NCBI GenBank assembly: GCA_963749565.1
Contig: CAVVNL010000004.1
Span: 142,628 to 206,627 of the forward strand
Source: an uncultured Acidobacteriota bacterium
GTDB taxonomy: Bacteria > Acidobacteriota > Vicinamibacteria > Vicinamibacterales > CAVVIG01
Direction: 5' to 3'
DNA length: 64,000 nucleotides
How positions within the stretch are numbered: the stretch's first letter is position 1; each line of letters begins with the position of its first letter. The notes beneath the pieces are model-generated. The model was not told the DNA's origin. It saw only the letters and a list, made by a program, of their open reading frames with translations, and ran no database searches. Below are positions 22,087-60,908 of the stretch, piece by piece. The position numbers were made by a program, and so were the translations under genes.

Positions 22087-22245
22087 ACGAACTATGACTA
22101 TATCGTGAATTTGGCAACCGGGTCATTGGATAATCCGAGTTGGTCAGGTGTATCGTGCTGGTCTCGGTCGCCAGGAAATTGGTCCGTTTTGCGTGTTCGC
22201 ACATTGCCGGTTTTTCGTTATCTGTAAGGTAGTGAGGCAAGTTCA

Positions 22246-35502: not shown

Positions 35503-38174
35503 TTGGCTCTCAGCCCCGGCGCGCGCCTAGGCGTTTACGAAGTCACGGTCCAAATTGGCGAAGGTGGCATGGGCCAGGTCTACCGGGCCCGCGACACGAA
35601 GCTGAATCGTGACGTCGCGCTCAAAGTGCTGCCAGACCTCTTCGCGAGCGACGCCGAGCGGCTGGCGCGTTTCACACGCGAGGCCCAGACCCTCGCCTCG
35701 CTGAACCATCCGCACATCGCGGCAATCTACGGTCTCGAGGAATCGGGCGGTGTGCGCGCCCTGGTCATGGAGCTCGTCGAGGGCGAGGACCTCTCACAGC
35801 GGATCGCGCGCGGCGCGATCCCGCTCGACGAAGCACTCCCGATAGCGCGCCAGATCGCCGAGGCGCTGGAGGCGGCGCACGAGCACGGGATCATTCATCG
35901 CGATCTCAAGCCCGCGAACATCAAGGTGCGGCCGGACGGCACCGTGAAGGTGCTGGACTTCGGTTTGGCGAAGGCCGATCGGAACCGCCGGCCTCGTCGC
36001 CGGAGCGTGACGCAGTCGCCCACGCTGACCTCGCCCGCGATGATGACCGGCATGGGCGTGATCCTCGGCACCGCCGCGTACATGTCGCCGGAACAGGCCG
36101 TGGGCCGGCCGGCCGACAAGCGGAGCGACGTCTGGGCGTTCGGCGTGGTGCTGCTGGAAATGTTGACGGGGCGGCCGGTGTTTGCGGGCGAGACGGTGTC
36201 GCATGTGCTTGCCGCGGTGTTGAAGAGCGCGCCGGATTGGACAACGCTGCCGGCCGACACGCCCGCGTCGATCCGGACGCTGCTGCGGCGCTGCCTCGAG
36301 AAAGATCGCAGGCACCGACTGGCCGATGCGGCGGACGCACGACTCGAGATCGAGGAGGCGCTGATCGACGGCAGGCAGCGTCGCGCCGGCATCCGCGGCG
36401 CCAGTCCGGCACGCACGCCTCCCGTGGGTCGTCGCTGCCCTGGCGACGATCGCCGCCGCGGCGGCGGTCGCGCTGTGGGCGCCGTGGCGCACCGAGCCCG
36501 AACCGGCCCGCGTGGCGTTTGAGGTGCAGACGGCCTACCCCAGGCGGCGGCGGCCCGCTCACATGTTCGCGATCTCGCCCGACGGCACGCATCTCGTCGC
36601 GCTCGTCCAGGACGGCGATGTCCGGAAACTCTGGGTCCGACCGCTCGCGCGCCTCGAGGGCGTCACGCTCGAGCGCACCGATGGCGCGTGGTACCCGTTC
36701 TGGTCGCCTGACGGCGACACCGTCGGTTTCTTTGCGGACGGCAAGCTGAAGACGATCGATATCTCTGGCACAGCGCCGCAGACGCTCGCCGACTCGCAGT
36801 CCGGCCTGGGGGGGCACATGGAACCGCGATGGCGTGATTCTCTTTGCCCCGCGACAGGACGGTCCCATCTACCGTGTGGCGGCGAGCACGGCGGTCCCGT
36901 GGTCCCCGTGACCGAGCTCGACGCCACGCGCGGCGACACGTCCCACCGGTTTCCCCGCTTTCTCCCCGACGGCGTGCACTTTGTCTATCTCGTCATCAGT
37001 TCGAGACCCGAATCGGGCGGCATCTACCTGGGGTCCCTCGCGTCGAAGGAAGCGCACCGGCTCGTGGACGCGCCGAGCAAGCCGGAGTTTGCGCCGCCCG
37101 ATCTGCTGCTGTTCCTGCGCGAGAGCACGCTCACGGCGCAACGGCTCGATACCAACAGCTCCCAGATCGTTGGCGCGCCGTTCCGGATCGTTGCGCCGGT
37201 GGGCCGACGCCGAACAACGGGGTCGCGGCGTTCTCTGTGTCGGACAACGGCGTGCTGGCGTACCGGACAGGGTTCGGTGGCGGCGTACGAGAGCTGGTCT
37301 GGGTGGACCGAAATGGAAAGCGGGAGCGCACGGTCGGTCCCCCGGCTCTTTACCAGAATCCCAGGCTGTCGCCAGACGGGCAACGGCTGGCGGTGTTCAA
37401 GCCTGAGGACGGCGGCGACATCTGGGTCATCGAGTTGGAATCCGGCAATGGCACGAGGTTCACCTTGGATCCGGCGTCCGACAACGTGCCGCTGTGGTCG
37501 CCGGGACGGCACCCGGATCGCGTTTGTCTCGGATCGCGAAGGCGGCGTCTTCAACATCTACCAGAAGAACGCCGGAGGCACGGGGCCGGAAGAACTGCTG
37601 TTCAAGAACCGAGCACTCCAAGACTCTCAACGACTGGTCGCCCGATGATCGGTATCTCCTGTACCAGGAAGTGGATCCGCAGACGAAGAAGACCGACGTC
37701 TGGATGTTGTCGCTCGCGGATCGCAAGGCGTCCCGGCTCCTCACCAACCCCTCGATCAGCGAGAGCGAGAGCGAGGCGACGTTTTCGCCGGACGGCCGCT
37801 GGATCGCCTACACATCAGGCGAGGGCGGCATGCCGGAAGGTGCTACGTGCAGAAGTTTCCGACCCCGGACGGGAAGTGGCAAGTGTCAAGCGGAGCGGGT
37901 CGGTGCACACCCACGCTGGGGAACGGACGGCAAGGAATTGTTCTTTGACATCATGGGGACGATGGCGGCTGTCAGCGTCACAGGTCTGGGGCCGGAGACG
38001 AGTTCAGACCAGGCGCGCAGAAGACACTGTTTGCGGGACTGCTCGGCGGCTGCCCCACACAATTTCGATGTCGCGGACGCAGGACAGCGCTTCCTCGTGC
38101 AGCTGGTGCCGGGGGAAGCCTTGCCGATCACCGTCGTGGTGAATTGGAAGTCCGGCCTGTCTCTGGGGCGATGA
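35503..38174 (+). CDS. Ser/Thr protein kinase fused to a TolB-like (PD40/WD40-like) beta-propeller region, many frame breaks
   Basis: Kinase motifs GEGGMGQVYRARD, VALKVL, HRDLKPANIKV, DFGLAKA, YMSPEQ. C-terminal PD40-type repeats (FAISPDGTHLV, FWSPDGDTVGFF, RLSPDGQRLAVF, ATFSPDGRWIAYTS). The protein path hops between ORFs 35503, 36512, 36844, 36981 and 37494. Confidence 0.75.
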
Positions 38175-38218
38175 TCAACGCGGGGCGCCTTCCTGACTGG
38201 CGCGACGAAAGAGGTCCC

Positions 38219-39043
38219 ATGCGACGGCTGCAGTTCTCCATCCTTGCCGCGCTGCTGACAACGGCCGGCAGCGTGTTTGCGCAGTCGAATCCGTTCGACG
38301 GCCTGATCGGCGGCGCGCTCTCCCCGGATCCCGTTCTGTACGCGAAACAGAAGGCCCAGTGGCTCGCTCGTGTTGAGGCGCTTCCCCAGGATGTGGATGT
38401 CCTCGAGGGAGCAGCACAATTCTTCATCATCCGCGATCGACCGCTGGCCCAGGACCTGCTCGGCCGGGCGCGCGCCCTCGAGCCGGACAACCCGCGGTGG
38501 GTATTGCAGCTGGCCCATTTGCACAGGATGAACGCCGCAGCGCGGGGCGACGCCGCCGAAGCGCTCCTTGCGTTGAGCGAAGAGGAGCAGGCGTACGCGA
38601 TGGCGTCTGCAACCGAACGAACGTTGCCGACTGTGCTGCCCCAAACGGCGTTCGATGCGGGCGATTTACCGAAGGCCGCGGCGTACGCGCAGCGGTTGCT
38701 CGACGAGGCGGGGAGCTATCGCGACAATTGGAACTACGGGAACGCGATTCACAAAGGAAATCTCGTGCTGGGCCGCATCGCCGTGCGCGAAGAGAGGATC
38801 GCGGATGCGGTGAAATTCCTGCGTGCGTCCGGAGAGACACCCGGGTCGCCGCAGCTCAACTCCTTCGGGCCGAACATGTCGCTCGCCAGGGATCTGTTGG
38901 AGCAGGGTGAGACTGAGGCCGTACTGGCGTACTTCGAGTTGTGCCGCGTGTTCTGGAAGATGGGCGGCAGCCGCCTCGATGCCTGGGCCAGGGAAGTCCG
39001 GGCGGGCAACCTGCCGGCGTTCGGTGCGAACCTCAGCTACTGA
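38219..39043 (+). CDS. secreted helical-repeat hypothetical protein
   Basis: The ATG at 38219 gives signal MRRLQFSILAALLTTAGSVFAQ. The rest is alpha-helical/TPR-like. Intact in the frame of ORF 38144..39043. Confidence 0.6.
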   Translation: MRRLQFSILAALLTTAGSVFAQSNPFDGLIGGALSPDPVLYAKQKAQWLARVEALPQDVDVLEGAAQFFIIRDRPLAQDLLGRARALEPDNPRWVLQLAHLHRMNAAARGDAAEALLALSEEEQAYAMASATERTLPTVLPQTAFDAGDLPKAAAYAQRLLDEAGSYRDNWNYGNAIHKGNLVLGRIAVREERIADAVKFLRASGETPGSPQLNSFGPNMSLARDLLEQGETEAVLAYFELCRVFWKMGGSRLDAWAREVRAGNLPAFGANLSY

Positions 39044-39096
39044 TCGTTCATGGCTCGGCGTCCGCAGGAATCCGCCGCGCGCGGCCGCCCGGCCCG

Positions 39097-39102
39097 TATA
39101 AT
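39097..39102 (+). promoter_or_regulatory. candidate -10 box TATAAT, 11 nt upstream of the TTG start of kinase 2
   Basis: ggcccgTATAATccacggagcgaTTGgcc, paralogous to 35486..35503. Confidence 0.45.
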
Positions 39103-39113
39103 CCACGGAGCGA

Positions 39114-41847
39114 TTGGCCCTCCTCCCCGGCGCGCGCCTCGGCGTCTACGAAGTCACGGCACAAATTGGCGAAGGTGGCATGGGCCAGGTCTACCGGGCC
39201 CGCGACACGAAGCTGAATCGTGACGTCGCGCTCAAAGTGCTGCCGGACGCGTTCGCGAGCGACGCCGAACGGCTCGCCCGGCTGACCCGCGAAGCCCAGA
39301 CCCTCGCGTCGCTGAACCATCCGAACATCGCGCACATCTATGGGCTCGGAGGAATCTGGTGGTGTGCGCGCCCTCGTCATGGAGCTCGTCGAGGGTGACG
39401 ATCTGTCGCAGCGGATTGCGCACGGCGCGATCCCGCTCGACGAAGCACTCCCCATTGCGCGCCAGATCGCCGAGGCGCTGGAAGCGGCGCACGAGGCGGG
39501 CATCATCCATCGCGATCTCAAGCCGGCAAACATCAAGATCCGCGAGGACGGCACCGTGAAGGTGCTCGACTTCGGGCTGGCGAAGCTCACGCAGGCTTCA
39601 GGCTCTGGGCTTCAGGCTTCGGGAGAACTCAGTCAGTCGCCGACGATCACGACGCCGGCGATGACGCAGGCCGGGATGATTCTGGGCACGGCGGCGTACA
39701 TGGCGCCGGAGCAGGCGAAAGGGCGCGCGGCCGACAAGCGCAGCGATGTCTGGGCATTCGGGTGTGTGCTCTACGAGATGCTCACGGGCCAGCGGGCGTT
39801 CGAAGGCGAAGACGTCGGCGACACGCTTGCGGCGGTCTGCGGGCGCGAGCCGGACTGGGCCGCGCTGCCCACTGATCTTCCGCCGGCAATTCGCACGCTG
39901 GTGCAGCACTGCCTCGTGAAAGATCGACGTCAGCGGATCGCCGACATTTCGGTCGCACACTTTCTGCTGACTCAGCACGCAGGCCTTGCGCCCGCCGCCG
40001 TCCCGGCGGTGGCCGTTCCACGCCTGCCGCTGTGGCGACGTGTGGCTGCGCACGCTGGTGGAGCGTTGGCAGGGGCCGCGGTCGCCGCAATGGTGGGCAC
40101 CGGCCTCTGGCTCGCGATGCGTCCGGCGCCGCCCCGCGTTTCGCGTCTGCTGATCACCCCGCCGAGCGCAGAGGCATTGACGATCTCCCGGCGCTCGACT
40201 CGCGACGTGGCGATCACGCCCGACGGATGCGCGCGTCGTCTACGCCGGCGTCAATAATACGCTGGTCGTGCGAGCGCTCGACCAGCTCGACGCGACGCCG
40301 CTGACGGGCCTCGGCGTTGCGCCGCAGTAACCTGTTCGTATCGCCCGACGGCCAATGGATCGGCTTTGTCGACCGACGGAAACCAGAATCTGAAGAAGGT
40401 GCAGATAACCGGCGGCCCGCCGATCGCGGTGGCCCGCCTCGACGGTGCGTTGAGCGGTGCCACCTGGGGGCCGGACGGCGCGATCATTTTCGGAACCACG
40501 AACCTCGAGACCGGCCTGCAACACCTCGCCCCAGACGGTGGGGAGCCGACCGTGCTGACGCGGCCAAACCGTGAGGGGGGTGAGGGCGATCACGTCTGGC
40601 CGGAATTCCTGCCGGGCGGTCAGGCGGTCCTGTTCACGATCAGGGCGACGACGGGCGACCTCGACCAGGCGCAGATCGCCGTGCTCGATCTCCGGAACGA
40701 TAGGCAGACTACGCTGATACGGGGGGGCACGGACGCCCATTACCTGCGGAGCGGCCATCTGGTATACGGTGCGGCCGGGACCTTGCGGGCCATCGCGTTC
40801 GATCTGGCCACGCTCACCGTTCAAGGCTCGGCGGTGCCCATCGTGGAAGAGGTGCTGACCAAGGTCACCGGCGCCGTGGACGTCGCGGTGGCGGGCGACG
40901 GAACGGTCGTCTACGTGCCGGGTGTTCTAGGAGCGGCGGCGCAACAGACGCTGGTCTGGGTCGATCGTCAGGGCCGCGAGGAACCGCTCAAGGCGACCGC
41001 CCGGGCGTACGCGAATCCCCGGCTCTCGCCGGACGGGACGCGCGTGGCGCTCGAGAGCCGCGACCGGCAGAACGACATCTGGATTCTGGAGCCTGAACGG
41101 GAGGCGCCAACGCGCCTGACGTTCGACCCTCTCTGCGATCAGTCTCCGGTGTGGACGCCCGACAGACAACGCGTCATGTTCAGCTCGGGCCGGAGCGGTG
41201 TCGTTGTGCCGAATATGTTCTGGCACGCCGCAAATGGGACAGGAACAGTCGAGCGCCTGATCCAGAGACCGAACAGTCAAAATCCCACGGGCCATCTCAC
41301 CGGACGGCACGCGGCTCGTGTTCGAGGAGACCGTGGCGGGAGCTAGTGACATCATGATGCTGACGCTGGATAAGGACAGGCGTGTCGAGCCGCTGGTGCG
41401 AGACACCATTCAACGAGCGAAACGCGGAGATCTCCCCCGACGGACGGTGGCTGGCCTACGAGTCGAACGAATCCGGGCAGTACCGAAATCTACGTGCGAC
41501 CATTCCCCGACGTGAACAGCGGTCGCTCGCCGAGTCTCCACGGCGGGTGGTACCCGACCGCTGTGGGCCAAGAAGCGGCCAAGAGCTCTTCTACGTGGCG
41601 CCGTCGGGCGCGATCATGGCCGTCCCGTATCGAACAGGGACCAACCTGGAAGGCCGGCACGGCCGCCAAGCTGTTCGACTGGCCGATTTCTGCCGTCACC
41701 AGTCGCTCGTACGATGTATCGGGTGACGGGCGGTTTCTGATGCTCAAGCCGGTCGCTGGATCCGAGTCGGCGCCAGCCCCGACGAGCCTCGTCGTCATCC
41801 AGAACCTCGACGTGGAGCTGAAGCGGCTCGTGCCGATCAAGAACTGA
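39114..41847 (+). CDS. Ser/Thr protein kinase fused to a TolB-like beta-propeller region (paralog of 35503..38174), many frame breaks
   Basis: The kinase core is nearly identical to kinase 1, including an 83-nt perfectly identical stretch (39162-39244 vs 35551-35633). Motifs HRDLKPANIKI, DFGLAKL, YMAPEQ, and PD40-type repeats (FVSPDGQWIGFV, RLSPDGTRVALE, AEISPDGRWLAYESNESG). The first break (an extra g) is near 39347. Confidence 0.75.
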
Positions 41848-41874
41848 CGCTGTGCGTGCAGGATCGAAACTCGG

Positions 41875-43269: not shown

Positions 43270-44655
43270 TTATTTGGGCGATGCGGGCGCCTGAATCGGG
43301 GTCTCGATCTGCTTGTGGCAGTAATCGCAGTCGGCGCTGATCTTCGATCCGTCCTTGGCCTCGTGCGAATCGTCGTGGCAGCGGAAGCAGCCGTTCGACG
43401 TGACGTGGCCCGTGTTGTTCGGATAGCTGCCCCAGGTCACGCTCATGTCCGGAAACACGTTCCGGCCATACAGTTGCTGCACCGCTTCGACGGCCTTCGT
43501 CACCGCCTGCTGGTCGATGGCGCCGGTCTGGCTTTTATAGAAATTCCGCAATCCTTCTTCGATTGCGCTCATGCCCGCTTCCTGGCTGGGGTACGTCGCC
43601 TTCACGAGGCGGAGGCTCTCGCGTCTTGCAAAGGGCAGTTCGTGGCTCACCATCGCGGCGGCGATGGCTTGATCGACGGCCCGCTCTGGTGTCGGCGAGA
43701 TGGGATGCCCGACCGTGTTGTGGCAGTCGACGCAGTCCATCGTTAGTCGATCGGCCGCGCGGATCGCCTCTTCCTTTGCGTCAGCCGCGAGGTACTCTTT
43801 GACCTGGCCGTTCGCGTCGGTCACTCGCACGTACGGGATCGTCTGCCGCTCCGCATCGGTCGCCACGTACTCGACGCGAACGGCAGGATCCGCATGCCAG
43901 TGAATCGCCCGCGCCGATGACGTCGTGACGCTCATGTGCATCTGCAGCACCGTCATGGTCCCGGTGTTGGCTTCGTCGTCGGCATAGTCGCGGATGACGC
44001 GGACGCGATCGCCGATCACGCGTCCGGGCGGGTGGCAGCCCTTGCACGTTTCCGCCTGGGCGCCGGGGGACATCTTGGCGCCGGGCGGAATCGGCCTCGG
44101 ATACGTATTGGTGGCGACCATCGCCAGCTGTCGTACGCCGGAAAGCTTCGCCTGCACCAAGGCCTTCGCCCCTTCTCCAATGTGACAGTCGACACAGGCG
44201 ACGCCGGAATGCGCCGCGCCCTGCCAGGCCTGGAACTGAGGGCGCATCGGCGTGTGGCACGTCTGTCCGCAGAAGCCTGGCGTTTCCATCGCGTGCAGGC
44301 CGCCGTACCCGGCCAGCAGAATGAGGACGATGTTGACCGCGGTGAGTGCCGCGATGAGGATGGCGGCTCGGCGGACGTTCGCGCGACGAAAATCGACGAC
44401 GGGCCATTCGGAGACCGCCGTTGGATCGCGAAGCAGTCTTCGTCGCTCGAGATGCATGCCCGCCGGGATGAGCAGAAGCCCCAGCACGAACACCGCTGGG
44501 ATGGCGATGAAGATCACCAGACCTGCGTACGGGTTGGTGAACATCCCCGCCAGCATGGCGATCACCATGGTGATGAACACCACGGCCGACGCCGTGGTGA
44601 CGACCGCCCCGACGATCGCGAGCGGGTGGCGCGCGAGCGCGCTGATCCTCATCAC
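43270..44655 (-). CDS. inner-membrane multiheme c-type cytochrome, NapC/NirT-like with three N-terminal TM helices (CymA/ImcH-like quinol dehydrogenase candidate)
   Basis: Three hydrophobic helices in the first ~125 aa. The NapC/NirT-like segment ETPGFCGQTCHTPM has one CX3CH. Five CXXCH motifs follow (CVDCH, CKGCH, CVDCH, CFRCH, CDYCH). Intact 461 aa. Confidence 0.75.
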   Translation of the reverse strand: MMRISALARHPLAIVGAVVTTASAVVFITMVIAMLAGMFTNPYAGLVIFIAIPAVFVLGLLLIPAGMHLERRRLLRDPTAVSEWPVVDFRRANVRRAAILIAALTAVNIVLILLAGYGGLHAMETPGFCGQTCHTPMRPQFQAWQGAAHSGVACVDCHIGEGAKALVQAKLSGVRQLAMVATNTYPRPIPPGAKMSPGAQAETCKGCHPPGRVIGDRVRVIRDYADDEANTGTMTVLQMHMSVTTSSARAIHWHADPAVRVEYVATDAERQTIPYVRVTDANGQVKEYLAADAKEEAIRAADRLTMDCVDCHNTVGHPISPTPERAVDQAIAAAMVSHELPFARRESLRLVKATYPSQEAGMSAIEEGLRNFYKSQTGAIDQQAVTKAVEAVQQLYGRNVFPDMSVTWGSYPNNTGHVTSNGCFRCHDDSHEAKDGSKISADCDYCHKQIETPIQAPASPK

Positions 44656-44664
44656 GAACGCTCG

Positions 44665-45018
44665 CTACTTCTTCAGACTCTGCATGTAGGCGACGAGCCC
44701 GTCGAGATCCGCCGCGGGCAGGCCGCCGTACTTCGCCGGCATGAGCGGCTTTTTCGTCGACTTGGCCTTCGCGGCGGCCTCGAGCGGGGTCACGATCCAG
44801 GCGCGGATGTCGGCGGCCGACAGCTTCGCGCCGACGCCGTCGAGCGGATTCGTCTTGCTACCAGCACCCGCGATGGAGTGGCAGATCGAACATTTCTGCG
44901 CGGCGTACACCTCCTGCCCCTTCTTCACCTGCGCGGCGTCCTGGGCATTCGCGATGCCGGCGGAAAAGACGAGAGCGAAGACAACGAGCCATCCCCTGGT
45001 CACGAGCGTCCTGTGCAT
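44665..45018 (-). CDS. periplasmic monoheme class I c-type cytochrome
   Basis: Signal MHRTLVTRGWLVVFALVFSAGIANAQ, a single CSICH, and a distal Met region KKPLMPAKY. 117 aa. Confidence 0.85.
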   Translation of the reverse strand: MHRTLVTRGWLVVFALVFSAGIANAQDAAQVKKGQEVYAAQKCSICHSIAGAGSKTNPLDGVGAKLSAADIRAWIVTPLEAAAKAKSTKKPLMPAKYGGLPAADLDGLVAYMQSLKK

Positions 45019-45060
45019 ACAGATCCTCCATGTGCCGAACCGGCGACGTGCCGGCCACTA

Positions 45061-47263
45061 CTACCAACGATACAGAATGCCGAACACCGCCGAGTGGGCG
45101 GTGTAGGGCCGATACACGTAGCCCATGACCAGCGAGCTCGGCTGCACGATGCCGTTGACCACGCTCGGGTCGAACGCGAAGTCGTAGATGCTCAGCGGCT
45201 CGTACAGGTACGAGAACGACGCGGCGAGGCGGTCGGAGAGCCGGTACCGCCCGTCGATGTGCAGCTGCTGCAGCTTGTTGAACACGTCGGGCAGCTGATT
45301 GGGCGGCGGGATCGGGCTGCCCGCCGGGATCGGCGTAGAGGTAGCTCCCCTCGGCGTAGCTGAAGTCGTAGGCGACGCGGATCTCAGTGTTGGCGCCGAT
45401 GCGTGGCGGGCTGGCGTAGATCGAGAAGTAATTCACCGTCTCGGTCGAATCGGCGGTCCAGTCGCGCAGCGGATCGTTGAACTGGGCCGTGGACGAATCC
45501 CCCTCGTGCGAGCGCTGCAGCCCGGCGTAGCGCTCGTAGTTGTAGCTCCCGCCCGCGCCAAAGCCGTTCGGCCGCTGGAAATCCGCCGCGAGCGAGAACG
45601 TACGGCCGGTGGAATCCTGCAGGCCGTAGAAGCTGTTGCTGAAGTCGTCCTTGAGGACGCCGGTGGCCACGCTGAACGTCCAGGCGTCGGACGGCACGAT
45701 ATCGGCCTGGGCCGTGAAGCGGTTCCTCGTCCGATCGGCGACGTCGTAGTGGCGCATCTTGGGTTGCTCGCCAATCGCCGTCAGCCGCGTTTCGTCGAGA
45801 TCTGAACCGGTGCGATCGCCGACCTCGTATTGCGTCCGGAAGGTGAGCCACGAGGTTCCGACGGCATCGGCCGACACGCGGAACACGTTCTCGCCGCTCG
45901 ACTCGAAGATCCGCGCATCGTAGCCGTTCCCGTTGTGCGAGTAGCCGACCGTGAGCGCGAACGGCATCAGTTTCGTCCACGTGGCGTCGCCGTCGAAGGT
46001 CGTCCGGCTGTGCGCGTAGAGGTCCGGACCGCCCGTTGGCGTCGTCGACGCCGAGGAGTCGTAGCTGACCATGTCCGTGATCGACGTCGCGGGCATGAGG
46101 TTGTCGTAGGTGTAGTTGCGCACGCGCGCGCTGAACCGCCAGTCGGTCGACGGGCGCGAGTTGAGGCTCAGGTTGGTCGAGAAGACGTGCGCTTCCCCCT
46201 CGGTGGTCGCGCGGGGCAGCGCGAACTGCGGCAGCGCCGCGTTGATCGTGAAGGGCTCCAGCGGCTCGTCGTTGCTCCACAGTCCATAGGAGAAGGAGCC
46301 CGTCACCTGCGTTCTGCGCGCCAGCTTGGTGTAGCCGCCGAAGCTGATCGTCTGGGCCGAGTTCGACGGCCAGAGGGACATGCGTCCGCGCCCCGGATTC
46401 TCGACCCCATCGTTGAGGTCGAGCGGGCTGTCCCAGACCAGCGTCGGCGCGAGGTTGTCGAACCACGATCCGCTGTAGGCGACACGCAGCATGTTGCGCG
46501 CGTTCGTCCACTCGGTGCCGATGGTGAAGTCGTTCGCGCGCGAATCGTAGGGGAGCGCCACCTCGACGTCGTTGCTGAAGCCGAAGCTGGCCCCCCAGGG
46601 CAGCTCGCCGCTGTGCTTCTGCGTGGTGAAGCTGGCCGTTGACGTCGAGGTTCGGCTTCGGCGTCGCGACCATGTCGAAACGGCCGATGTCGCGCCGCTC
46701 GCGCAGCTCGAACTGCGGCGCCAGCGGGACGTAGGCGTTGAGATTGGCCTGGCCGTTCTGGATCGCGCGCTGCGTCGCGTCGTCGAGCACCAGCGTGCCG
46801 CCGGTGCCCGTATACGGCGTCATCGTATCGACGCTGTAGAACTGCGGAATCTGCTGCCAGCTGCCGCTGAGCGACAGCTTGCCGATCCGGCCGTAAGTCC
46901 CCATGAACTCCTGGTCGCGGTAGCCGACGTTCTCGGCGCGCGCGTGGAAATCCCACGTACCGTCCGGCTTGGCGAACGAGTAGCGGAAGTTCGAGAACAG
47001 CAGCCCGTCGCGCTGGTCCTGGTAGCGCTGGTAGCGCGCCGGGTCGCCGTCCACGCTCGTGAAGCGGCCCCCGATGAGGAATTCGCGCGAGGTCGGCTCG
47101 AAGAGACTGCGCGACGCGACGCATCGGCCGCCGCGGGCGCGGCCGGCTGCGCCGGGGTCTGAGCCGATGGCTGCGCCGGCGGTTGGGCGGCTCCCTGTGC
47201 GAGTGCGGCACCGGGCGCGGCGAGGCCGAGCAGGGCGATCGTCGTGATGGCGAATCGGCGCAT
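45061..47263 (-). CDS. MtrB/PioB-family outer-membrane beta-barrel (decaheme-associated porin), three frame breaks
   Basis: Signal MRRFAITTIALLGLAAPGAALAQ and the family-typical DGDPARYQRYQDQRDGLLFSNFRYS. A long barrel with alternating aromatic strands ends in ...AVFGILYRW. The path is ORF 46820..47263, then 45384..47054, then 44858..46561, then 45061..45285 (breaks near 47105, 46590, 45300). Confidence 0.75.
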
Positions 47264-47276
47264 ACAGAGGCTCCGC

Positions 47277-48240
47277 TTACCGCATGTAGAACTGGCCCGA
47301 CGGGTGGTTCGAGCCGTGGACCTGCGAGTGGCAGTTCACGCACGATCTGCCGAACATCCGGTTGCTCTTGTTGGTGGTGATCTGGTCCTTGTCGTAGAGC
47401 GTCGCCGGGTGCCTGCTCGCGATGTGGCAGCGCTGGCAGAGCATCGGCATGCGGACGGCCAGCATGCGATCGTTCGACGACCCGTGCGGGTCGTGGCAGG
47501 TCGCGCAGTTCTCGCGCACCGGCGCGTGCTCGAAGAGCATCGGTCCGCGCATCTCGGTGTGACAGCTCGTGCAGAGCTCAGCGACGGAGCTGCCCGTCTT
47601 CAGGTTCTTGACGTTGGTGATCGAGCCGTGCGGGTTGTGGCACGAGCTGCAGGACATCTTGCCTTCGCGCACCGGCATGTGCGCGACGGCGCGTTCGGTC
47701 TTGGTCACCTGCAGCCGATGGCAGGTGGCGCACACCTGCGTTTCGGTCGTCTTCACCAGCTGCGCTCTGTGCCGACTTGCGGCGCTGTGGACGCTGTGGC
47801 ACGTCGCGCAGGACAGATTGCGCCGCGTCGTGCGCGCTGCCTTCCCACCCCGCGTGGGCGCCGCGGTTGTGACAGGTGAGACAGGTCTCGCTCACCTCCG
47901 CGGGCTTCATCTGCGCGAACTTCTTGATGTTCCCCTTGGCGTCGTCGTCAACGTGCGCCTGCCCGGGGCCGTGGCAGCTCTCGCACCCGTTGGCCGCCGC
48001 CGGCGACCGCGGATTCTTCGCCTGCGCGTGTTTCGAGCCCGTGAGGGTGGCCTCCTGATCGGTGTGGCAGAGGACGCAGGTATCGCTCCCGACATAGGCG
48101 ACCGGGGCGACCGGCGGAGTCGTCGCTTGTGCGGGAGCCGGCGGTGCTGGAGCGGCTCGAGTCGAGGAAGGAGGCGCAGAGATCAAACCGACAACGACCG
48201 TCGCCCAGAGCCACACGACCACCAAGACAAACCGTGTCAT
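47277..48240 (-). CDS. periplasmic decaheme c-type cytochrome, MtrA/DmsE/MtoA/PioA family (one frame break)
   Basis: Ten CXXCH motifs: CVLCH, CESCH, CLTCH (ORF 47578..48240); then CATCH, CATCH, CSSCH, CTSCH, CATCH, CQRCH, CVNCH in the frame of ORF 47277..47756 extended upstream (RNLSCATCH by hand translation). Family-typical end ...CHSQVHGSNHPSGQFYMR. The +1 break is near 47800. Confidence 0.85.
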
Positions 48241-48344
48241 GGCTACCTCAATCGATGACGCCCAACGCCGTCCAAGTCAGGCACGCACGATGCCTAGCAA
48301 ATGACGCGCCGCACGGCGGGCTCTCAATCAAGCGGCAGCCACTG

Positions 48345-48480
48345 CTCGCGCGCGTCACACTCGCGTCACTATAACGTGATCGAAATTGTGATCACTTAAA
48401 TGTGATCGCAAATGTGATCTCAAGGTCACGGTATGTGGTGAGCGATCACGGCGTGTGGCTAGCGTCACGGCGGGTGCGGT
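48345..48480. promoter_or_regulatory. array of short direct repeats (iteron-like) in the divergent intergenic region
   Basis: CGTCAC x2 (48351-48370). (C/T)GTGATC at 48375, 48387, 48401 and 48413 (spacing 12/14/12 nt), including the palindrome GTGATCAC. Then (G/A/C)TCACGG(N3-5)GTG(T/C)GG at 48424, 48444 and 48463 (spacing ~20 nt). The region is locally AT-richer than its flanks. Confidence 0.5.
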
Positions 48481-48598
48481 GCGCCAGCATGGTTCGCATC
48501 GCCGTGGCCCCACAGCGTACGCGCCTGCGTTCCGCGACCTAGCCAGACCCCGCGAGAAGGATCACCGTTTGCACCGGGCGCCTTCTTCCCGAAAAGGC

Positions 48599-48627
48599 TT
48601 GACACGTAGTGGACGCGAGCGCATAAC
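48599..48627 (+). promoter_or_regulatory. candidate sigma70-type promoter for the formate dehydrogenase operon
   Basis: TTGACA (48599-48604), a 17-nt spacer, then CATAAC (48622-48627). GGAGGA lies 5 nt before the ATG at 48702. Confidence 0.4.
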
Positions 48628-48701
48628 GTAGCGGCAGTCGGAGCCGGGTCTCACAACGGCGAGGAGAGAAACCGAAGACCGCAGTCGCACGGAGGAAACC
48701 C

Positions 48702-51700
48702 ATGGATGAATCCGCGGATGCTCCGACCCGGAACCCCTCCGAGAGCCCGTTGGATGGGAGTGGCACACCGACGTCGACAATCAGCCGCAGAGACCTGTTC
48801 AGGCTGACCTTCGGCGGTGGAGCAGGACTCGCGCTCGGCGGGCTCCTCGACGTTCCCGCGATGCGGGCCGCGACGAGGGACTTGAAGCTCTCGGACGTCA
48901 GCGAGTTCACCACCTCGTGCAACTTCTGCTCGTGCGGGTGCGGCATGATCGCCGCCGTCCGCGACGGCAAGCTCCTGACGATGGAGGGCGACTACGACCA
49001 CATCGTGAACCGCGGGGCGCTGTGCGTCAAAGGCATTTCCATGTTCGCGACGCACGCCTCCCCGAAGCGGCTCACGACGCCCCGCTACCGGGCGCCGGGC
49101 AGCGACCACTGGGAGGACATCTCCTGGGACGACGCGATCACGCGGGTCGCGCAGAAGATCCGGAAGACGCGCGACGAGACCTGGATCGCCACCGAGAAGG
49201 TGGATGCGCCTGAACTCGTCGTGGATCTCGCTGCGGGTGATCGGATCGAGAGCGCCCCACGGTTCGTCCCTCAGGAGGACGGCAACGCAGAGGTGCCGGT
49301 CAATCGCACCGACGCGATCGGCTTCATGGGCGGCGCGCAGAACACGAACGAGGAGTGCTACCTCTTCCAGAAGGCGGCCCGGCTGCTCGGCCTGGCTTAC
49401 GTCGAGCACCAGGCCCGGCTTTGACATAGCCCCACGGTCCCCGGTCTGGGGGCCACGTTCGGGCGGGGAGCGATGACCAACCACTGGGTCGACCTGCAGA
49501 ACTGCAAGACGATCCTGGTGGAAGGCAGCAACGTCGCCGAAAACCACCCCATGGCCTTCAAGTGGATCCGGAAGGCCCAGGAGAACGGGGCGAAGATCAT
49601 CCACGTCGATCCGCGATACACCCGGACCTCGGCGGGGGCGGACGTGTACGCGCGCATCCGGCCCGGCACCGACGCGGCGTTCCAGAACGCGATGATCAAC
49701 CACATCATCGTCAACAAGCTGTACGACGAGGATTACGTCGTCACCCACACGAACGCCCTCTACCTGGGCGACGAGGCGTTCGACTTCAAGGATGGGGTCT
49801 TCAGCGGCTACGACGAGGAGCACCACACCTACGACACCAAGACCTGGGGATACCAGCTCGACGCGAAGGGCAAGCCGCGCGATCGCCAGGAGCCTCGATG
49901 ACCCGCACTGCGTGTTCTCGCGCCTGAAGACCTTCGTCTCGCGGTACACGCTGGAGATGGGCGAGCGGATCACCGGCATTCCGGCCGATCAGATCCGGCA
50001 GATCGCGGAGACGATGGCGAAGAACCGGCCGGGATCCATCCTCTACGCGCTCGGGATGACCCAGCACACGACCGGTGTGCAGGGGATCCGGTCGTTCACG
50101 ATCCTGCAGCTCCTGCTCGGCAACATCGGCAAGCCCGGAGGCGGCGTCAACGCGCTGCGCGGCGAGCCGAACGTGCAGGGCGCGTGCGACATGGCGGTGC
50201 TCTACAACTACATGCCGGGCTACCTCAACTCGCCGACCAATGCCGAGCCGACGATCTACCACTACGTGCGCAAGAACGGGATCGCCGACAGCCGGTACCT
50301 CGTCAACACGCTCAAGGCGTTCTTCGGAGAGGCGGCCACCGCCGAGAACGACTATGCCTATGCCTGGCTGCCCAAGCGCGACGCGGCCAAGGACTACGGC
50401 ACCCTGCCGATGTTCGAGGATGCCCTCGCCGGGAAGCTGAAGCTCCTCTGGATCGTCGGCCAGAATCCCGCGGTCACCCTGCCCAACCTCAAGCTGACGT
50501 TCGACGCGATGGCGAAGCTCGAGACGCTCGTGGTCCAGGAGATCTGGGAGACCGAGACCGCGGCGTTCTGGCGCCGGCCCGGCGTCGACCCGAAGTCCAT
50601 CGCCACCGAAGTGATCCTGCTGCCCGCGGCGTTCTTCATGGAGAAGAACGGCACCATCAGCAACTCGGGCGGCATGGTGCAATGGCGCCACGCCGCCGTG
50701 AAGCCGCCGGGGCAGGCCAAGCCCGACGGCGAGATCGTGGACCTCGTCTTCCGCGCGGTGCGCGATCTGGTCAAGGACTCGAAGGAGCCGAGGGACGAGA
50801 TCATCCGCAAGGCCTTCTGGACCTACACCACGGCCGAGGACGTCCTGCGCGAGATCAACGGCTACGCCCTGCGCGACAACCCGGAGACCGGCCTCAAGGC
50901 GGGCGATCTCATCCGCAAGGTCGGCGATCTTCGGGCCGACGGTTCCACGTCGTCCGGCGCCTGGATCTACGCGGGCGTCTTCGCCAACGGCGAGAACCTC
51001 TCGAAGCGCCGCGACTCGACAACGGATCCGGGAGGCCTCGGCCTCTATCCGGGCTTCGGGTGGACCTGGCCCAACAACATGCGCATCCTCTACAACCGCG
51101 CGTCGTGCGACCGGAACGGCAAGCCCTATCCGGGCTCGAAACCCATCGTCTGGTGGGACGAGCAGGCGAAGCGCTGGACGGGATACGACGTGCCGGACGT
51201 CCCCGTCCTGACCGACGGACCCGACACGCCGAACGGCCAGCGGGCCTTCCACCTGGGCGCGGAGGGCGTCGGGCGCCTCTTCGCGGCCGTCTACACGGAC
51301 CCCGACGCGAGGTTCACCGAATATTGGCGCGACGTGGCCTACGTGCCGAAGGACGGCCCGCTGCCGGAGATGTACGAGCCCGTCGAGAGCCCGGTGGAAA
51401 ACATCCTTCACCCGGGCGTGAAGAGCAACCCGATGCTCAAGTATCCGCGCGTCGCGTCGCATCAGCCCATCGGCACCGCCGACAAGTTCCCCTACGTGCT
51501 GATGACGTCGACGGTCGCCGAACACTGGTGCTGCGGCTCGACGACGCGGAACATCCCCTGGCTCAACGAGCTCGTCCCCGAACCGATGGTGGAGCTGCCG
51601 GTCGCCCTCGCCCAGAAGCTCGAGATCACATCGGGGGACTGGGTCCGGGTCTCGTCGGCGCGCGGTGAGCTCGAGGTCAAGGCCCTCGTCACGCCCCGCA

Positions 51701-51921
51701 TGAAGGCGCTGAAAATCGGCGACCAGGAGGTCACCGTCGTCTGGATGCCGTACAACTGGGGCTTCCAGGGGCTGTCGACGGGTCCGAGCGTCAACCACAT
51801 CACGATCGACGCCACGGATCCTGGAGCGGGAACCCAGGAGACCAAGGCGTGCCTCGTCAACGTCGTCAAGACCGGCCGCCCGGCGGCGCGAAGATCCGGA
51901 TCACCGAGGGGACGCACATGA
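48702..51921 (+). CDS. fdhA: formate dehydrogenase catalytic (molybdopterin) subunit, Tat-exported, selenocysteine at UGA 49422-49424; one frame break
   Basis: Tat motif SRRDLFRL and Fe-S motif CNFCSCGCG. The active-site block EHQARL-U-HSPTVPGLGATFGRGAMTNHW has the TGA in frame between ORFs 48702..49424 and 49473..49901. A +1 break near 49886 leads into ORF 49792..51921 (GMTQHTTG, ALRGEPNVQG, ...ETKACLVNVVK). Confidence 0.9.
49422..49470 (+). promoter_or_regulatory. UGA(Sec) codon plus bacterial SECIS hairpin
   Basis: UGA CAU AGC CCC ACG GUC CCC GGU CUG GGG GCC. The stem GGUCCCC/GGGGGCC has the apical loop GGUCU, and GGUCUG starts 18 nt after the UGA. As I recall it, this is the same register as the E. 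coli fdhF SECIS. Confidence 0.75.
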
Positions 51922-54122
51922 CGCTAGCCGCGGACGCGGGCCCGATCAAGACAACGCTGATCGACATCGCCAACTGCATCGGCTGCCGGGCGTGCCAGGT
52001 AGCCTGCAAGCAGTGGAACGAGCGCGAGGGCGAGCAGACCGAGCTCGAGGCCGACATGGGCTTCCAGAACCCGGCGACGCTCAGCGCGAAGACGTACACG
52101 CTCATCGCGTTCCACGAGATGGAGAACCCGGCGAAGCCGGGAGGGCTGGATTCCGCCTACGTGATGCAGCGGTGCCTCCACTGCCTGGAGCCGGCCTGCG
52201 TCTCCGCCTGCCCGACGACGGCGCTCCAGCGGCAGGCCGACGGCCCGGTGTCGTATGAGGTCGACGAGTGCATCGGCTGCCGCTACTGCATGCTGGCGTG
52301 TCCCTGGGACGTGCCGACCGCGGACTGGAACACGCGCGCCCCGAAGATCTCGAAGTGCACGCACTGCGCCGACCGCGCCCCTCAGCCGGCGCCGATCGCG
52401 TTCAACGGGCAGCCGCTGTCCGACGATGCGGCCAGGCAGTTCGCCAACACCATGGCGATTCCAGCCTGCGTCAAGGCGTGCCCCGCCGACGCCCTGCGCT
52501 ACGGAACCCGGGACGAGATGCTGGCGCTCGCGCACAAGCGCATCGCCGACCGGCCCGACAAGTACGTCGACCACGTCTACGGAGAGAAGGAGCTGGGCGG
52601 GACGACCGTGCTGTACCTGTCGAGAGTGCCGTTCGAGAAACTCGGCTTCCCGACGTACGGGGAGAAGCCGTTTCCGGCCTTCACCACGGCGGCGCTCGGC
52701 GCCGTGCCCCCCGCCGTGATGGCCGTGGGCGCCCTGCTCGGCGCCGCGTACGCCTTCTTCCGGAAGCGGGCTCAGGCGGTGGCAGACGCATCGGCTGCGT
52801 CGGCGCATTCCGGACACCACGGCCCCGTTAAACACGTCGAATTCGAGCCGCTCCGGCACGCGCTGCTGACCCCCTTCAACTGGGTCCTCCTCATGCTCAT
52901 GGCGTTCGGCGGCGTCACGTTCGTCGCGCGCTTCGCCCTCGGACTCGGCGGCAGTACGAACCTCTCCGACACCTACCCGTGGGGCCTGTGGATCCTCTTC
53001 GACCTGGTGTGGATCGCGGTGGCCGCCGGCGCGTTCGCGATGGCCGGGGTGATCTATGTCTTCCAGCGAAAGGACCTCTACGGGCTGGGCCGCACCGCCG
53101 TCCTGATGGGCCTGCTGAGCTACTCCTTCGTGATGGTCACACTCATCGCCGACCTCGGCCTGCCCTGGAACTCCTACCAGCTCGCCCTGCAGGCTCCGGA
53201 GCACTCGGCCATGTTCGAGGTCTCGTGGTGCGTCGGCCTCTACGTCACGGTCCTCCTGCTCGAATTCCTGCCGGTGCCTTTCGGGCGTTGGGGATTCCAT
53301 CGGGCCGCGGCTGAATTACGGCGATGGAACGGCGCCTACGTGGCGGGGGCGGTGACGCTGTTCGTCTACCTGATGTCGCGCAGCCTCCTCTACGCGCTCG
53401 GGGCGGCCGTGATCTTCGGCGCCCTCGCCTGGATTTTCCGCGCGCGGGACGAGGGGGCCGAGCCGATCATGCTCGCGATCGCCGCCGTCACGCTGTCGAC
53501 CATGCACCAGAGCTCGCTCGGTTCCCTCTACCTGCTGATGCCGAACATGCTCGCCCCGCAGTGGTGGTCTCCCGTGATGCCCGTCTCCTTCTTCCTGTCG
53601 TCGATCGCGGCCGGCACCGCGCTCGTCATCCTCATCGACATGTGGATCGCGAAGGGATGGCGCCGCCCGCTCGAGATTACGCGGCTCGCCTCGGTCGGAC
53701 AGATCGCGTTCTGGGCGCTCCTTGTCTACCTCGTATTTCGCCTCGGAGACATGGCGATCCGCAACCAGCTCTCCGGAGCCTTCTCCGGCAGGCTCGGCAT
53801 GGCCTTCGCGGCCGAGATCCTCCTCGGCGGCGTGCTTCCGCTCGTCCTGCTGGCCCGCAGGTCGCTTCGCCAGCGTCCCGACGTGCTCTTCGTCGCGGCC
53901 CTCCTCGCGGTCGTCGGCGTGGCGTACAACCGCATGAACGTCGTAATCTTCGCGATGACTTTCCGGGGCCGCATGCCCTGGGGCGCACCGGAAACCTATT
54001 TCCCGTCGATCGTCGAGTGGGGCGTGTCGATCGGCCTGATCGCCGCGACGATCTTCCTCTTCGGCCTGGCGGCCCGTCTCATGCCGGTGCTCTCCCGGGC
54101 GCAGCCCAGCGAGGCACATTGA
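51918..54122 (+). CDS. fusion of a 4x[4Fe-4S] ferredoxin subunit (FdnH/HybA-like) with a HybB/NrfD-family integral membrane quinone-interacting subunit
   Basis: The ATG at 51918 overlaps the fdhA stop (ATGA). Cys clusters CIGCRACQVACKQWN, CLHCLEPACVSACP, CIGCRYCMLACPWDVP, CTHC...CVKACP. A TM helix follows, then ~8 more TM segments with HybB-like blocks (YPWGLWILFDLVWIAVAAGAFA, LSTMHQSSLGSLYLLM). Intact 735 aa from 51918. Confidence 0.8.
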   Translation: MTLAADAGPIKTTLIDIANCIGCRACQVACKQWNEREGEQTELEADMGFQNPATLSAKTYTLIAFHEMENPAKPGGLDSAYVMQRCLHCLEPACVSACPTTALQRQADGPVSYEVDECIGCRYCMLACPWDVPTADWNTRAPKISKCTHCADRAPQPAPIAFNGQPLSDDAARQFANTMAIPACVKACPADALRYGTRDEMLALAHKRIADRPDKYVDHVYGEKELGGTTVLYLSRVPFEKLGFPTYGEKPFPAFTTAALGAVPPAVMAVGALLGAAYAFFRKRAQAVADASAASAHSGHHGPVKHVEFEPLRHALLTPFNWVLLMLMAFGGVTFVARFALGLGGSTNLSDTYPWGLWILFDLVWIAVAAGAFAMAGVIYVFQRKDLYGLGRTAVLMGLLSYSFVMVTLIADLGLPWNSYQLALQAPEHSAMFEVSWCVGLYVTVLLLEFLPVPFGRWGFHRAAAELRRWNGAYVAGAVTLFVYLMSRSLLYALGAAVIFGALAWIFRARDEGAEPIMLAIAAVTLSTMHQSSLGSLYLLMPNMLAPQWWSPVMPVSFFLSSIAAGTALVILIDMWIAKGWRRPLEITRLASVGQIAFWALLVYLVFRLGDMAIRNQLSGAFSGRLGMAFAAEILLGGVLPLVLLARRSLRQRPDVLFVAALLAVVGVAYNRMNVVIFAMTFRGRMPWGAPETYFPSIVEWGVSIGLIAATIFLFGLAARLMPVLSRAQPSEAH

Positions 54123-54126: not shown

Positions 54127-54960
54127 ATGACTCCGGATCCGTGGTTGGATGCGCATTCGTACCTCCGGCCCCTGGCCGACCTCTCCGCCCAGGTCGATCG
54201 CGCGGCGGCCGGGATCGACGTCTTCGACGCCCGCATTCCCGACTGGGAGGATTACGGCGCGGACTTTCGCGCCGGCGTGCCGCTGCTGTCGAGCGCCGAC
54301 GCGGGCGTCGATCTCGAACCGGGTGGGCGAATGGCCGGAGCGCTTCTCGAAAGACTGGCCTCAGGCACGTCGTCGGGACAGTTCGCGACGGAGACGCGCG
54401 CGCTCGACACGGCACTGCGGCGGGTTCCACAGGTCTCGCGCCGCATCGCGGACTTTCTGCTGGGCCCGCTGAGCGATGAAACGTTCGCGCCGCCCTTCCC
54501 CGGGCTGTTGCGGTATCTGGCGTGGACGGCGATGGCGCGGTTCCTCCGTCCCGTGGTGAACGCCTTCGACGGTTGGCGGGACGAGGAGCGGTGGGGTCGC
54601 AGGTATTGCCCGACGTGCGGATCCCTGCCCGCGATGGCCCAGCTGGTCGGGTTCGACCCCGGGCGCAGGCGTCTGCTCTCGTGCGGCTGCTGCGGCACGC
54701 GCTGGCAGTTCAAGCGAACCGGCTGCCCGTTCTGTGAAACCGACTCTCAACGGCTCGCGAGTGTGACCATCGAGGGAGAACGCGGCCTGCGCATCGACCA
54801 CTGCGAGTCCTGTGGCGGCTACCTCAAAACCTACGACGGGGAGGGCAACGAGGCCCTCATGCTATCGGACTGGTCTTCACTCCATCTCGACCTCATCGCT
54901 CACGATCGCGGATTGAAAAGGCTGGCCGCATCGCTTTACGAGTTCGAGCCCGTTCTCTGA
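54127..54960 (+). CDS. fdhE: formate dehydrogenase accessory protein FdhE
   Basis: Four CxxC pairs: CPTCGS, CGCCGTRW, CPFCE, CESCGGYLK. Intact 277 aa. Confidence 0.85.
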   Translation: MTPDPWLDAHSYLRPLADLSAQVDRAAAGIDVFDARIPDWEDYGADFRAGVPLLSSADAGVDLEPGGRMAGALLERLASGTSSGQFATETRALDTALRRVPQVSRRIADFLLGPLSDETFAPPFPGLLRYLAWTAMARFLRPVVNAFDGWRDEERWGRRYCPTCGSLPAMAQLVGFDPGRRRLLSCGCCGTRWQFKRTGCPFCETDSQRLASVTIEGERGLRIDHCESCGGYLKTYDGEGNEALMLSDWSSLHLDLIAHDRGLKRLAASLYEFEPVL

Positions 54961-60891: not shown

Positions 60892-60908
60892 GTGCGCCTT
60901 CCTGACGA

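Follow-up and report, generated by a model that had tools for sequence, protein, structure and literature searches.

A candidate extracellular electron conduit in the Vicinamibacterales: an ImcH-family cytochrome encoded with an MtrAB-type outer-membrane module

Can four adjacent genes of an acidobacterium specify a complete path for electrons between the quinone pool and the cell exterior, and if so, in which direction would the electrons travel? The question is raised by positions 43270-48240 of a 64-kb stretch of contig CAVVNL010000004.1 (hereafter the window, meaning all 64,000 nucleotides that were analyzed), which derives from an uncultured member of the Acidobacteriota, order Vicinamibacterales. 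Here, four co-directional genes on the minus strand encode, in the order of transcription, a decaheme cytochrome c, an outer-membrane barrel, a monoheme cytochrome c, and a multiheme inner-membrane cytochrome, with intergenic gaps of only 13, 42, and 9 nucleotides (nt). The last gap becomes 12 nt if translation of the fourth gene begins, as in its homologues, from the ATG at 44652, which is probably the true start. The monoheme and inner-membrane cytochromes are encoded by intact open reading frames (ORFs), while the decaheme and barrel genes are split across frames in the deposited sequence; these two were rebuilt by three-frame translation and by tblastn with intact homologues from related contigs, and the reconstruction was unambiguous. 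The spacing and coordinates of the four genes, as well as the motif counts and terminal signatures of their products, had been put forward by a first-pass annotation made from the sequence alone, and all were reproduced in the present analysis.

Families of the four gene products

The inner-membrane protein has one CX3CH heme motif (CGQTCH, residues 129-134) and five CXXCH motifs at residues 154, 204, 308, 423, and 443, and all six are invariant in 19 homologues. Three N-terminal transmembrane (TM) helices were located at about residues 11-35, 44-76, and 92-123 by an AlphaFold2 model in combination with a hydropathy scan; it is to be noted that the model, built on the 19-sequence alignment, had a pLDDT of 48 and a pTM of 0.28, and that only its TM helices are credible. 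The NapC/NirT profile matched residues 97-184 (38 bits) and the C-terminus is c7-like, while the NrfH model TIGR03153 scored 60 bits, below its cut-off of 134. With three TM helices and six heme motifs, the protein does not conform to the one-TM, four-heme type represented by CymA, ImoA, and the NapC/NirT tetrahemes. ImcH homologues, on the other hand, were described by Zhong and Shi (PMC6295460) as having three N-terminal TM helices, an atypical CX3CH adjoining the TM domain, and between five and nine CXXCH motifs; in GSU3259, the ImcH of Geobacter sulfurreducens, the hemes are at 132, 156, 205, 311, 428, 448, and 486, and the helices at 13-35, 45-67, and 100-122 (Table S3 of the same paper). 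Successive heme spacings are 24, 50, 104, 115, and 20 in the window protein, compared with 24, 49, 106, 117, and 20 in GSU3259.

The correspondence extends to individual residues. Biochemical study of ImcH (bioRxiv 10.1101/2023.05.03.539133) identified His137 and Gln179 as the ligands of heme 1, and E127, K173, and Y188 as a conserved pocket; residues E124, H134, K170, Q176, and Y185 of the window protein correspond to E127, H137, K173, Q179, and Y188 of GSU3259 with a constant offset of -3, and H134, K170, and Q176 are invariant in the 19-sequence alignment. The seventh, C-terminal heme is lacking, the polypeptide ending about 15 residues past heme 6, which therefore places it in the six-heme subgroup of the family, of which Anaeromyxobacter (468 aa) and Acidobacteria RIFCSPLOWO2 metagenome-assembled genomes (MAGs; 450-455 aa) are published examples (PMC6295460). 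It is also 39% identical, over 448 aligned residues, to P0136, a seven-heme, 507-aa member from Acidobacteriia. Accessions of the published ImcH table were absent from the profile-search clusters, from ten candidates that were looked up, and from the homologues of P0136, where the named matches came from Acidobacteriia, Ca. Sulfotelmatobacter, and other MAGs. Judged by these residues and motifs, the 461-aa protein is an ImcH-family member of the six-heme subgroup, and it is predicted to be a quinol:cytochrome c oxidoreductase. The first-pass annotation had counted the same helices and hemes and had placed the protein closer to ImcH than to CymA; the residue-by-residue match bears this out.

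The monoheme cytochrome has a single CSICH motif. Its C43xxC46H47 is invariant and its Met93 is 98% conserved in 56 homologues, among which no second conserved His was found, leaving Met93 as the only conserved distal candidate; thus, the heme is predicted to be ligated by His47 and Met93. In contrast, MtoD of Sideroxydans is bis-His ligated, and the PDB sequence matches of the monoheme at E <= 1 included no MtoD-like chain. At first pass, an analogy had been drawn with the mtoA-mtoB-mtoD-cymA arrangement of Sideroxydans. The protein rather resembles PmcA of Sideroxydans, a His/Met monoheme of -143 mV that links ImoA and MtoA, since it is His/Met-ligated and its gene directly adjoins that of the quinol dehydrogenase. 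Of 82 non-redundant homologous loci, 55 have a monoheme homologue as the gene immediately before the ImcH-like one, and the monoheme cytochrome thus appears to be a dedicated partner of the ImcH-like protein. The argument that His/Met ligation implies a high potential, and hence Fe(II) oxidation, was considered and dropped in view of the low potential of PmcA.

Removal of one extra base near 47827 yields a decaheme protein with exactly ten CXXCH motifs, at residues 55, 86, 120, 144, 170, 197, 223, 245, 268, and 300; tblastn with intact homologues required one frame switch, and DNA alignment placed one extra base relative to both of two related loci (L002 and L003). The protein scored 252.6 bits against TIGR03508, the DmsE/MtrA model (cut-off 192.2), and matched PF09699 three times. 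Its residues 12-319 align over the full length with Shewanella baltica MtrA in the solved MtrCAB complex (6R2Q_A; E 8.6e-66), and its C-terminus, ...CVNCHSQVHGSNHPSGQFYMR, aligns to that of the same MtrA. The decaheme is thus a member of the MtrA/DmsE family by profile and by homology, in agreement with the DmsE/MtrA-type C-terminus recognized at first pass.

The rebuilt barrel, which required three frame switches, is of the same length as the intact orthologue in L003, a short-read Vicinamibacterales MAG, and colinear with it by tblastn. It contains DGDPARYQRYQDQRDG near the N-terminus and ends in ...LYRW. Its match to PF11854 (MtrB_PioB; 291 bits) covers profile positions 3-635 of 635, the TIGR03509 score of 245.5 bits narrowly passes the cut-off of 240.05, and MtrB of the same complex (6R2Q_B) was matched with E 1.1e-11. 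These homologies make it an MtrB/PioB-family outer-membrane protein; the barrel of about 730 aa ending in YRW that the first-pass annotation had named passes both family models, so that the concern that it might miss them falls away. The rebuilt protein has no Cys at all, and therefore no CXXC motif. An N-terminal CXXC reportedly marks MtrB of metal-reducing Gammaproteobacteria; the barrel does not share this gammaproteobacterial feature, but the motif is clade-specific and was given low weight. In the megabase contig of L002 (positions 7314-9989), barrel and monoheme cytochrome are called as a single 891-aa fusion; tblastn shows frame changes inside it, so that the fusion probably arose in assembly and is not natural.

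A surface decaheme of the MtrC/OmcA type, reported missing at first pass, is absent from the 64 kb, since the count of CXXCH motifs does not exceed two in any other ORF of the window. The sole other ORF with any (19156-20391, minus strand) has two, and may be dihaem peroxidase-like.

Table 1. Conduit genes and adjoining features in the window. Lengths marked with an asterisk are those after repair of frame breaks.
Feature	Position	Strand	Basis of assignment
MtrA/DmsE-family periplasmic decaheme cytochrome c, 320 aa*, signal peptide	47277..48240	-	TIGR03508, PF09699, 6R2Q_A
MtrB/PioB-family outer-membrane barrel, 731 aa*, signal peptide	45061..47263	-	PF11854, TIGR03509, 6R2Q_B
Periplasmic monoheme class I cytochrome c, 117 aa, Sec signal peptide	44665..45018	-	PF00034, PF13442
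ImcH-family inner-membrane multiheme cytochrome, 461 aa	43270..44655	-	PF03264, heme and TM positions compared with GSU3259
Intergenic region from which the conduit and formate dehydrogenase operons diverge; presumed promoter/operator	48241..48701		Repeats; function inferred
Tat-exported formate dehydrogenase-N alpha subunit; possible electron input	48702..51921	+	TIGR01553
Fused 4Fe-4S (FdnH/HybA-like) and NrfD/HybB-like membrane subunit of formate dehydrogenase	51918..54122	+	Fer4_7, Fer4_11, NrfD; HybA, HmcB, and HybB NCBIfam models
FdhE-like formate dehydrogenase accessory protein	54127..54960	+	PF24859, PF24860; TIGR01562 65 bits, below cut-off

Frame breaks and conservation among relatives

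The deposited sequence contains four frame breaks, at about 47827 in the decaheme gene and at about 47122, 46641, and 45333 in the barrel gene, close to where the first-pass annotation had reported them, with the warning that genuine breaks would make the operon a pseudogene relic. Three of the four are clean single extra bases relative to two relatives; the one near 47122, in a Pro/Ala-rich linker that aligns poorly, is either a two-base excess or a one-base loss. A reading of the four indels as genuine, and of the operon as a decaying relic in this strain, would agree with their crowding within about 3 kb, with none in a homopolymer run, with the clean nature of the three insertions, and with the unbroken state of the two downstream genes. 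Nonetheless, similar breaks occur in unrelated genes of the window, namely those for the formate dehydrogenase (FDH) alpha subunit (about 49881), an LptD-like protein, and two kinase/PD40 proteins, and on either side of each break in the operon the identity to intact homologues stays at 67-90%, with no in-frame stops. Since plots of G+C content at third codon positions were too noisy for a window-wide count of frameshifts, Pfam split-domain checks and a comparison of assembly types were used instead. In aligned coding sequence of the 82 homologous loci, we counted 41 frame changes per 136 kb in long-read-style assemblies against 2 per 130 kb in short-read MAGs (MEGAHIT/SPAdes-style), and all short-read homologues of the operon were intact. 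It counts somewhat against this comparison that the long-read label rests on the naming of records and contigs and on the megabase sizes of the latter. Overall, the breaks follow the type of assembly and not biology; assembly error is almost certainly their origin, the operon is in all likelihood intact in vivo, and its decay in this strain appears very improbable.

The other broken or fused genes of the window deserve brief mention. Two paralogous Ser/Thr kinase genes with PD40 beta-propellers (35503-41850, plus strand) each occupy several frames, and in the second copy the ORF at 39340 picks up the kinase domain only from profile position 73. At 3680-6572 (plus strand), a Mur-ligase C-terminal domain shares one ORF with the start of the LptD-like protein, the remainder of which is scattered over other frames; this indicates further frame breaks in what is probably an essential gene. 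A 776-aa ORF at 59602-61932 (minus strand) combines class II fructose-bisphosphate aldolase and phosphofructokinase domains, and is probably an assembly artefact, because a related locus (L001) has these as separate adjacent genes.

The ImcH-like protein has more than 2500 homologues; those nearest to it, with 65-88% identity, carry the label Vicinamibacterales wherever they are named. Its profile, searched against 1.84 billion cluster representatives, retrieved 868 clusters (50% identity) at E <= 1e-30, and a scan of species-representative genomes retrieved 566 relatives, the best 80 of which were almost all Acidobacteriota. Gene layout could be read in 71 of the 82 non-redundant loci, the other 11 being uninformative. 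The order seen in the window (decaheme, barrel, cytochrome c, ImcH-like) was found in 35 loci, nearly all from Vicinamibacterales, and in two more that are cut by contig ends. Another 12 loci combine ImcH-like and MtrAB-like genes in other layouts: in ten, the ImcH-like gene, with or without a preceding cytochrome c gene, comes before decaheme and barrel, and in two the arrangement is inverted. In the remaining 22, mostly from Terriglobia, Bryobacteraceae, and Holophagaceae at about 40% identity, no MtrB-like gene was found within at least 3.5 kb. The ImcH-like gene thus adjoins MtrAB-like genes in 47 of the 71 informative loci (plus the two truncated ones), and this linkage in at least two gene orders argues for selection on the association of ImcH with MtrAB. 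The first-pass description of the combination as non-canonical is accurate relative to model organisms, but within the Vicinamibacterales the combination is the norm, and it has been mentioned in a 2026 paper (see below).

Several metabolic genes recur beside the conduit. Genes for pyruvate:ferredoxin oxidoreductase (PFOR) and a DHO_dh-like flavoprotein were found nearby in about ten loci, and those for acetate kinase, malic enzyme, and glycogen phosphorylase are also recurrent neighbours. In L003 (positions 1851-7380), as well as in L010, L014, L016, L021, and L035, the PFOR and DHO_dh-like genes immediately precede the decaheme gene. The PFOR gene of L003 encodes 1201 aa, and its DHO_dh-like gene overlaps the PFOR gene by 1 nt and the decaheme gene by 4 nt (TGATG, ATGA), which indicates co-translation; this arrangement suggests a six-gene operon leading from pyruvate oxidation to an outer-membrane conduit. 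In L008, the same two genes precede those for cytochrome c and the ImcH-like protein, with no MtrAB. A distant Vicinamibacterales clade (L048, L056, L058, L060, L062, L063, L065, L066, and L080) has a CbcL-like gene, encoding a multiheme N-terminus and a Ni_hydr_CYTB/cytochrome b561 domain, immediately ahead of the ImcH-like gene (at about 8001), and decaheme and barrel genes often come next; at these loci, therefore, both Geobacter-type quinol oxidases adjoin an MtrAB-type conduit. Lastly, petB-like cytochrome b genes lie near the cluster in L046, L051, L059, L060, and L065.

Direction of electron flow and the neighbourhood of the operon

We consider it somewhat better than an even chance (about 55%) that the four genes specify a complete trans-envelope conduit through which quinol-derived electrons are exported. 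In such a conduit, the ImcH-family cytochrome would oxidise quinol at the heme-1 pocket beside TM3 (E124, K170, Q176, Y185), releasing protons to the periplasm and passing electrons along its six hemes; the His/Met monoheme cytochrome would then ferry the electrons over the periplasm, and the MtrA-type decaheme, threaded in the MtrB-type barrel, would carry them over the outer membrane. As there is no MtrC, electrons would leave the terminal heme of the decaheme for acceptors that are soluble or in close apposition, for which chelated Fe(III), Mn(III/IV), humic quinones, and redox shuttles are candidates. Heterotrophic metabolism would furnish the quinol, with the neighbouring periplasmic FDH as one of the sources. 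What the analysis shows is the family of each of the four products, their operon-like packing, and the conserved linkage; the contacts between partners, the net outward direction, and the substrates are inferred. Export accords with the demonstrated activity of ImcH, an electroneutral menaquinol oxidase that reduces periplasmic cytochromes and has low-potential hemes, from -358 to -150 mV (bioRxiv 10.1101/2023.05.03.539133), and with the family being implicated in quinol oxidation only (PMC6295460). It is also favoured by the catabolic and anaerobic character of the neighbours (FDH, PFOR, acetate kinase), no carbon-fixation genes being present in the 64-kb window; most MAGs with such clusters likewise lack carbon fixation (PMC13264449).

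The FDH operon, which diverges from the conduit operon, provides a plausible electron source. Its rebuilt alpha subunit (1072 aa, one frame break) scored 1025 bits against the FDH-N model, well over the cut-off of 814.2, and an in-frame TGA at 49422-49424 aligns with the selenocysteine position (...HQARL-U-HSPTV...). The L002 orthologue is split at the same site into products of 190 and 815 aa; neither a SECIS element nor a selenocysteine tRNA was found in the window. The fused iron-sulfur/NrfD subunit is 83% identical to its L002 orthologue, and FDH adjoins the conduit in 14 loci, including the window. The first-pass annotation had allowed that a DmsAB partner nearby would tie the decaheme to DMSO reduction; however, the adjacent molybdoenzyme is FDH-N, with its own iron-sulfur/NrfD anchor and FdhE, and the DmsA models scored far below their cut-offs. 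It is therefore plausible that FDH-N, as an inner-membrane-anchored quinone reducer, is an electron source for the conduit, and not a surface reductase fed by it.

Several considerations weigh against the export of electrons as proposed. MtrC-less modules such as MtoAB and PioAB have been linked to Fe(II) oxidation or electron uptake, and the closest four-part analogue, the mto cluster of Sideroxydans, is an uptake pathway with NapC/NirT-family and monoheme cytochromes. Trees of MtrA and MtrB do not split oxidisers from reducers, and MtoA and PioA form no function-specific clades in published trees (PMC8805035), so that sequence cannot settle the direction. Geobacter ImcH and the monoheme cytochrome PccH showed no interaction in vitro (bioRxiv 10.1101/2023.05.03.539133); membership of the window protein in the ImcH family is drawn from the published positions and residues of GSU3259; and some relatives have genes for petB-like cytochrome b in the vicinity of the cluster.

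Some of these points would fit a flow in the opposite direction. The decaheme would then draw electrons from Fe(II), Mn(II), or a reduced shuttle outside the cell, the monoheme would hand them on to a bc1 complex or terminal oxidase, and the ImcH-like protein would work as a quinone reductase, in an uptake of the Mto/Pio type that supplements a heterotroph. The lack of MtrC/OmcA in 64 kb and of an N-terminal CXXC in the barrel (a motif reportedly linked to gammaproteobacterial metal reducers) would be in keeping with it, as would the part list, which parallels mtoD-mtoA-mtoB-imoA-pmcA down to a His/Met monoheme encoded beside the inner-membrane cytochrome. The petB-like genes of some relatives also fit, and petBC have been noted in such clusters (PMC13264449). 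But quinone reduction from Fe(II) would be uphill without coupling to the proton-motive force, since ImcH is electroneutral and its hemes are of low potential, and both the record of the family and the neighbours, which are catabolic and include neither oxidases nor carbon fixation, speak for quinol oxidation; we therefore regard inward flow as unlikely. A role apart from metals is less probable still. The conduit might serve soluble organic acceptors, an unlinked surface reductase in the manner of DmsEF, or a bidirectional redox valve with no dedicated substrate, given that MtrAB cores are modular and serve a DMSO reductase in Shewanella (PMC8805035), that the operon encodes neither a terminal reductase nor a surface cytochrome, and that its neighbours vary among relatives. 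However, no DmsAB-like enzyme is nearby, the adjacent FDH-N has its own inner-membrane anchor and is adjacent in only the 14 loci, and the data indicate no specific alternative substrate. Export of quinol-derived electrons thus remains our preferred reading.

The region between the two operons was also inspected. At 48349-48483 it has an AT-richer patch with GTGATC/GATCACA half-sites every 12-14 nt and three 19-20-nt TCACGG repeats (repeat families D1-D3 and I1-I3), and three of the five GATCACA sites of the 64 kb fall in this patch. As relatives do not share this array ahead of the operon, its candidacy as a shared operator was rejected; a promoter scan of the region found no match to the sigma-70 consensus. 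The rest of the window is devoted to glycolysis and glycogen metabolism, and thiC (20424-21995, minus strand) is directly preceded by a thiamine pyrophosphate (TPP) riboswitch (21985-22089, minus strand), which scored 65.7 bits and exceeded the gathering score.

Novelty and comparison with known systems

The Vicinamibacterales, one of the most abundant groups of soil bacteria, are considered to be aerobic heterotrophs. It is a tentative proposal, to which we would give slightly less than even odds, that members across this order carry a hybrid extracellular-respiration operon, made of ImcH, a PmcA-like monoheme, and MtrAB without MtrC, with PFOR co-transcribed in some species, and that they are unrecognised facultative reducers. 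If so, anoxic microsites in soil would be where they reduce soluble Fe(III), Mn, or humic acceptors. The joined operon, found in two gene orders and in dozens of species of a dominant soil order, suggests that ImcH and MtrAB modules are interchangeable, and that Acidobacteriota may contribute to the redox cycling of iron, manganese, and humic matter in soil; the conduit offers a compact, four-gene target for heterologous expression.

The operon is not categorically new, in light of earlier reports. ImcH homologues in Acidobacteria were already known (PMC6295460), and mtrA/mtrB candidates were noted in 2018 in Acidobacteria that included Luteitalea, an isolate of subdivision 6. In MAGs from the Sterkfontein cave (FEMS Microbiol Ecol 2026, PMC13264449), 'Group 2' clusters of a small decaheme and a 25-36-strand porin were described, and six of these include inner-membrane cytochromes that are ImcH- or NapC/NirT-like; the account is descriptive, based on few MAGs, and made in passing, and has no residue-level assignment of ImcH, no conserved monoheme partner, and no order-wide census. 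One of these MAGs, SAR122, is locus L051 of our census, where it shows another layout (class C) at 45% identity. A search of the literature for Vicinamibacter with MtoA or Luteitalea with multiheme cytochromes found nothing. The 2018 survey stated that no mtrAB or mtoAB was adjacent to any imcH (PMC6295460); the census corrects this, as imcH does adjoin such genes.

Comparison with characterised conduits brings out the composite nature of the operon. Like the mtoD-mtoA-mtoB-imoA-pmcA cluster of Sideroxydans lithotrophicus ES-1, it combines an MtrA-type decaheme and MtrB-type barrel, without MtrC, with an inner-membrane cytochrome of the NapC/NirT superfamily, beside which a small His/Met monoheme is encoded; the latter resembles PmcA, the partner of ImoA, in size, ligation, and gene position. 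Unlike the Mto system, in which ImoA is a one-TM tetraheme, the inner-membrane protein here is a three-TM, six-heme member of the ImcH family; there is one monoheme gene, the product of which is not bis-His ligated and has no MtoD-like structure match; and the host is a heterotrophic acidobacterium with catabolic neighbours, whereas Sideroxydans is an autotrophic Fe(II) oxidiser. With Geobacter sulfurreducens ImcH it shares the TM architecture, the CX3CH of heme 1 following TM3, the heme spacing, and the E/K/Q/Y pocket, but it lacks the seventh, C-terminal heme that is the proposed exit site in Geobacter. Its periplasmic partner is a monoheme where that of Geobacter is the triheme PpcA, and its outer-membrane module is of the MtrAB type where Geobacter has an Omb-Oma-Omc porin-cytochrome complex.

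The outer-membrane half can be compared with two further systems. As in Shewanella MtrCAB, the decaheme aligns with MtrA from end to end, including the C-terminal CHSQVHGSNHPSG, and the barrel matches MtrB; in contrast to Shewanella, there is no MtrC/OmcA, no CymA, and no shuttle of the STC or FccA type, and the barrel has no cysteine. Rhodopseudomonas palustris PioABC also pairs a decaheme and barrel, without a surface cytochrome, with a small periplasmic carrier. PioA, however, has a long N-terminal extension, PioC is a high-potential iron-sulfur protein rather than a cytochrome c, and the pio operon has no gene for an inner-membrane cytochrome. To our knowledge, ImcH has been studied only as it feeds Geobacter's own periplasmic and outer-membrane cytochromes, and MtrAB only when fed by tetrahemes of the CymA or ImoA type. 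Overall, the outer half of the operon reads as the MtrAB of Shewanella or the MtoAB of Sideroxydans, and its inner half as the ImcH of Geobacter, and there is no characterised system in which ImcH, monoheme, and MtrAB parts are joined.

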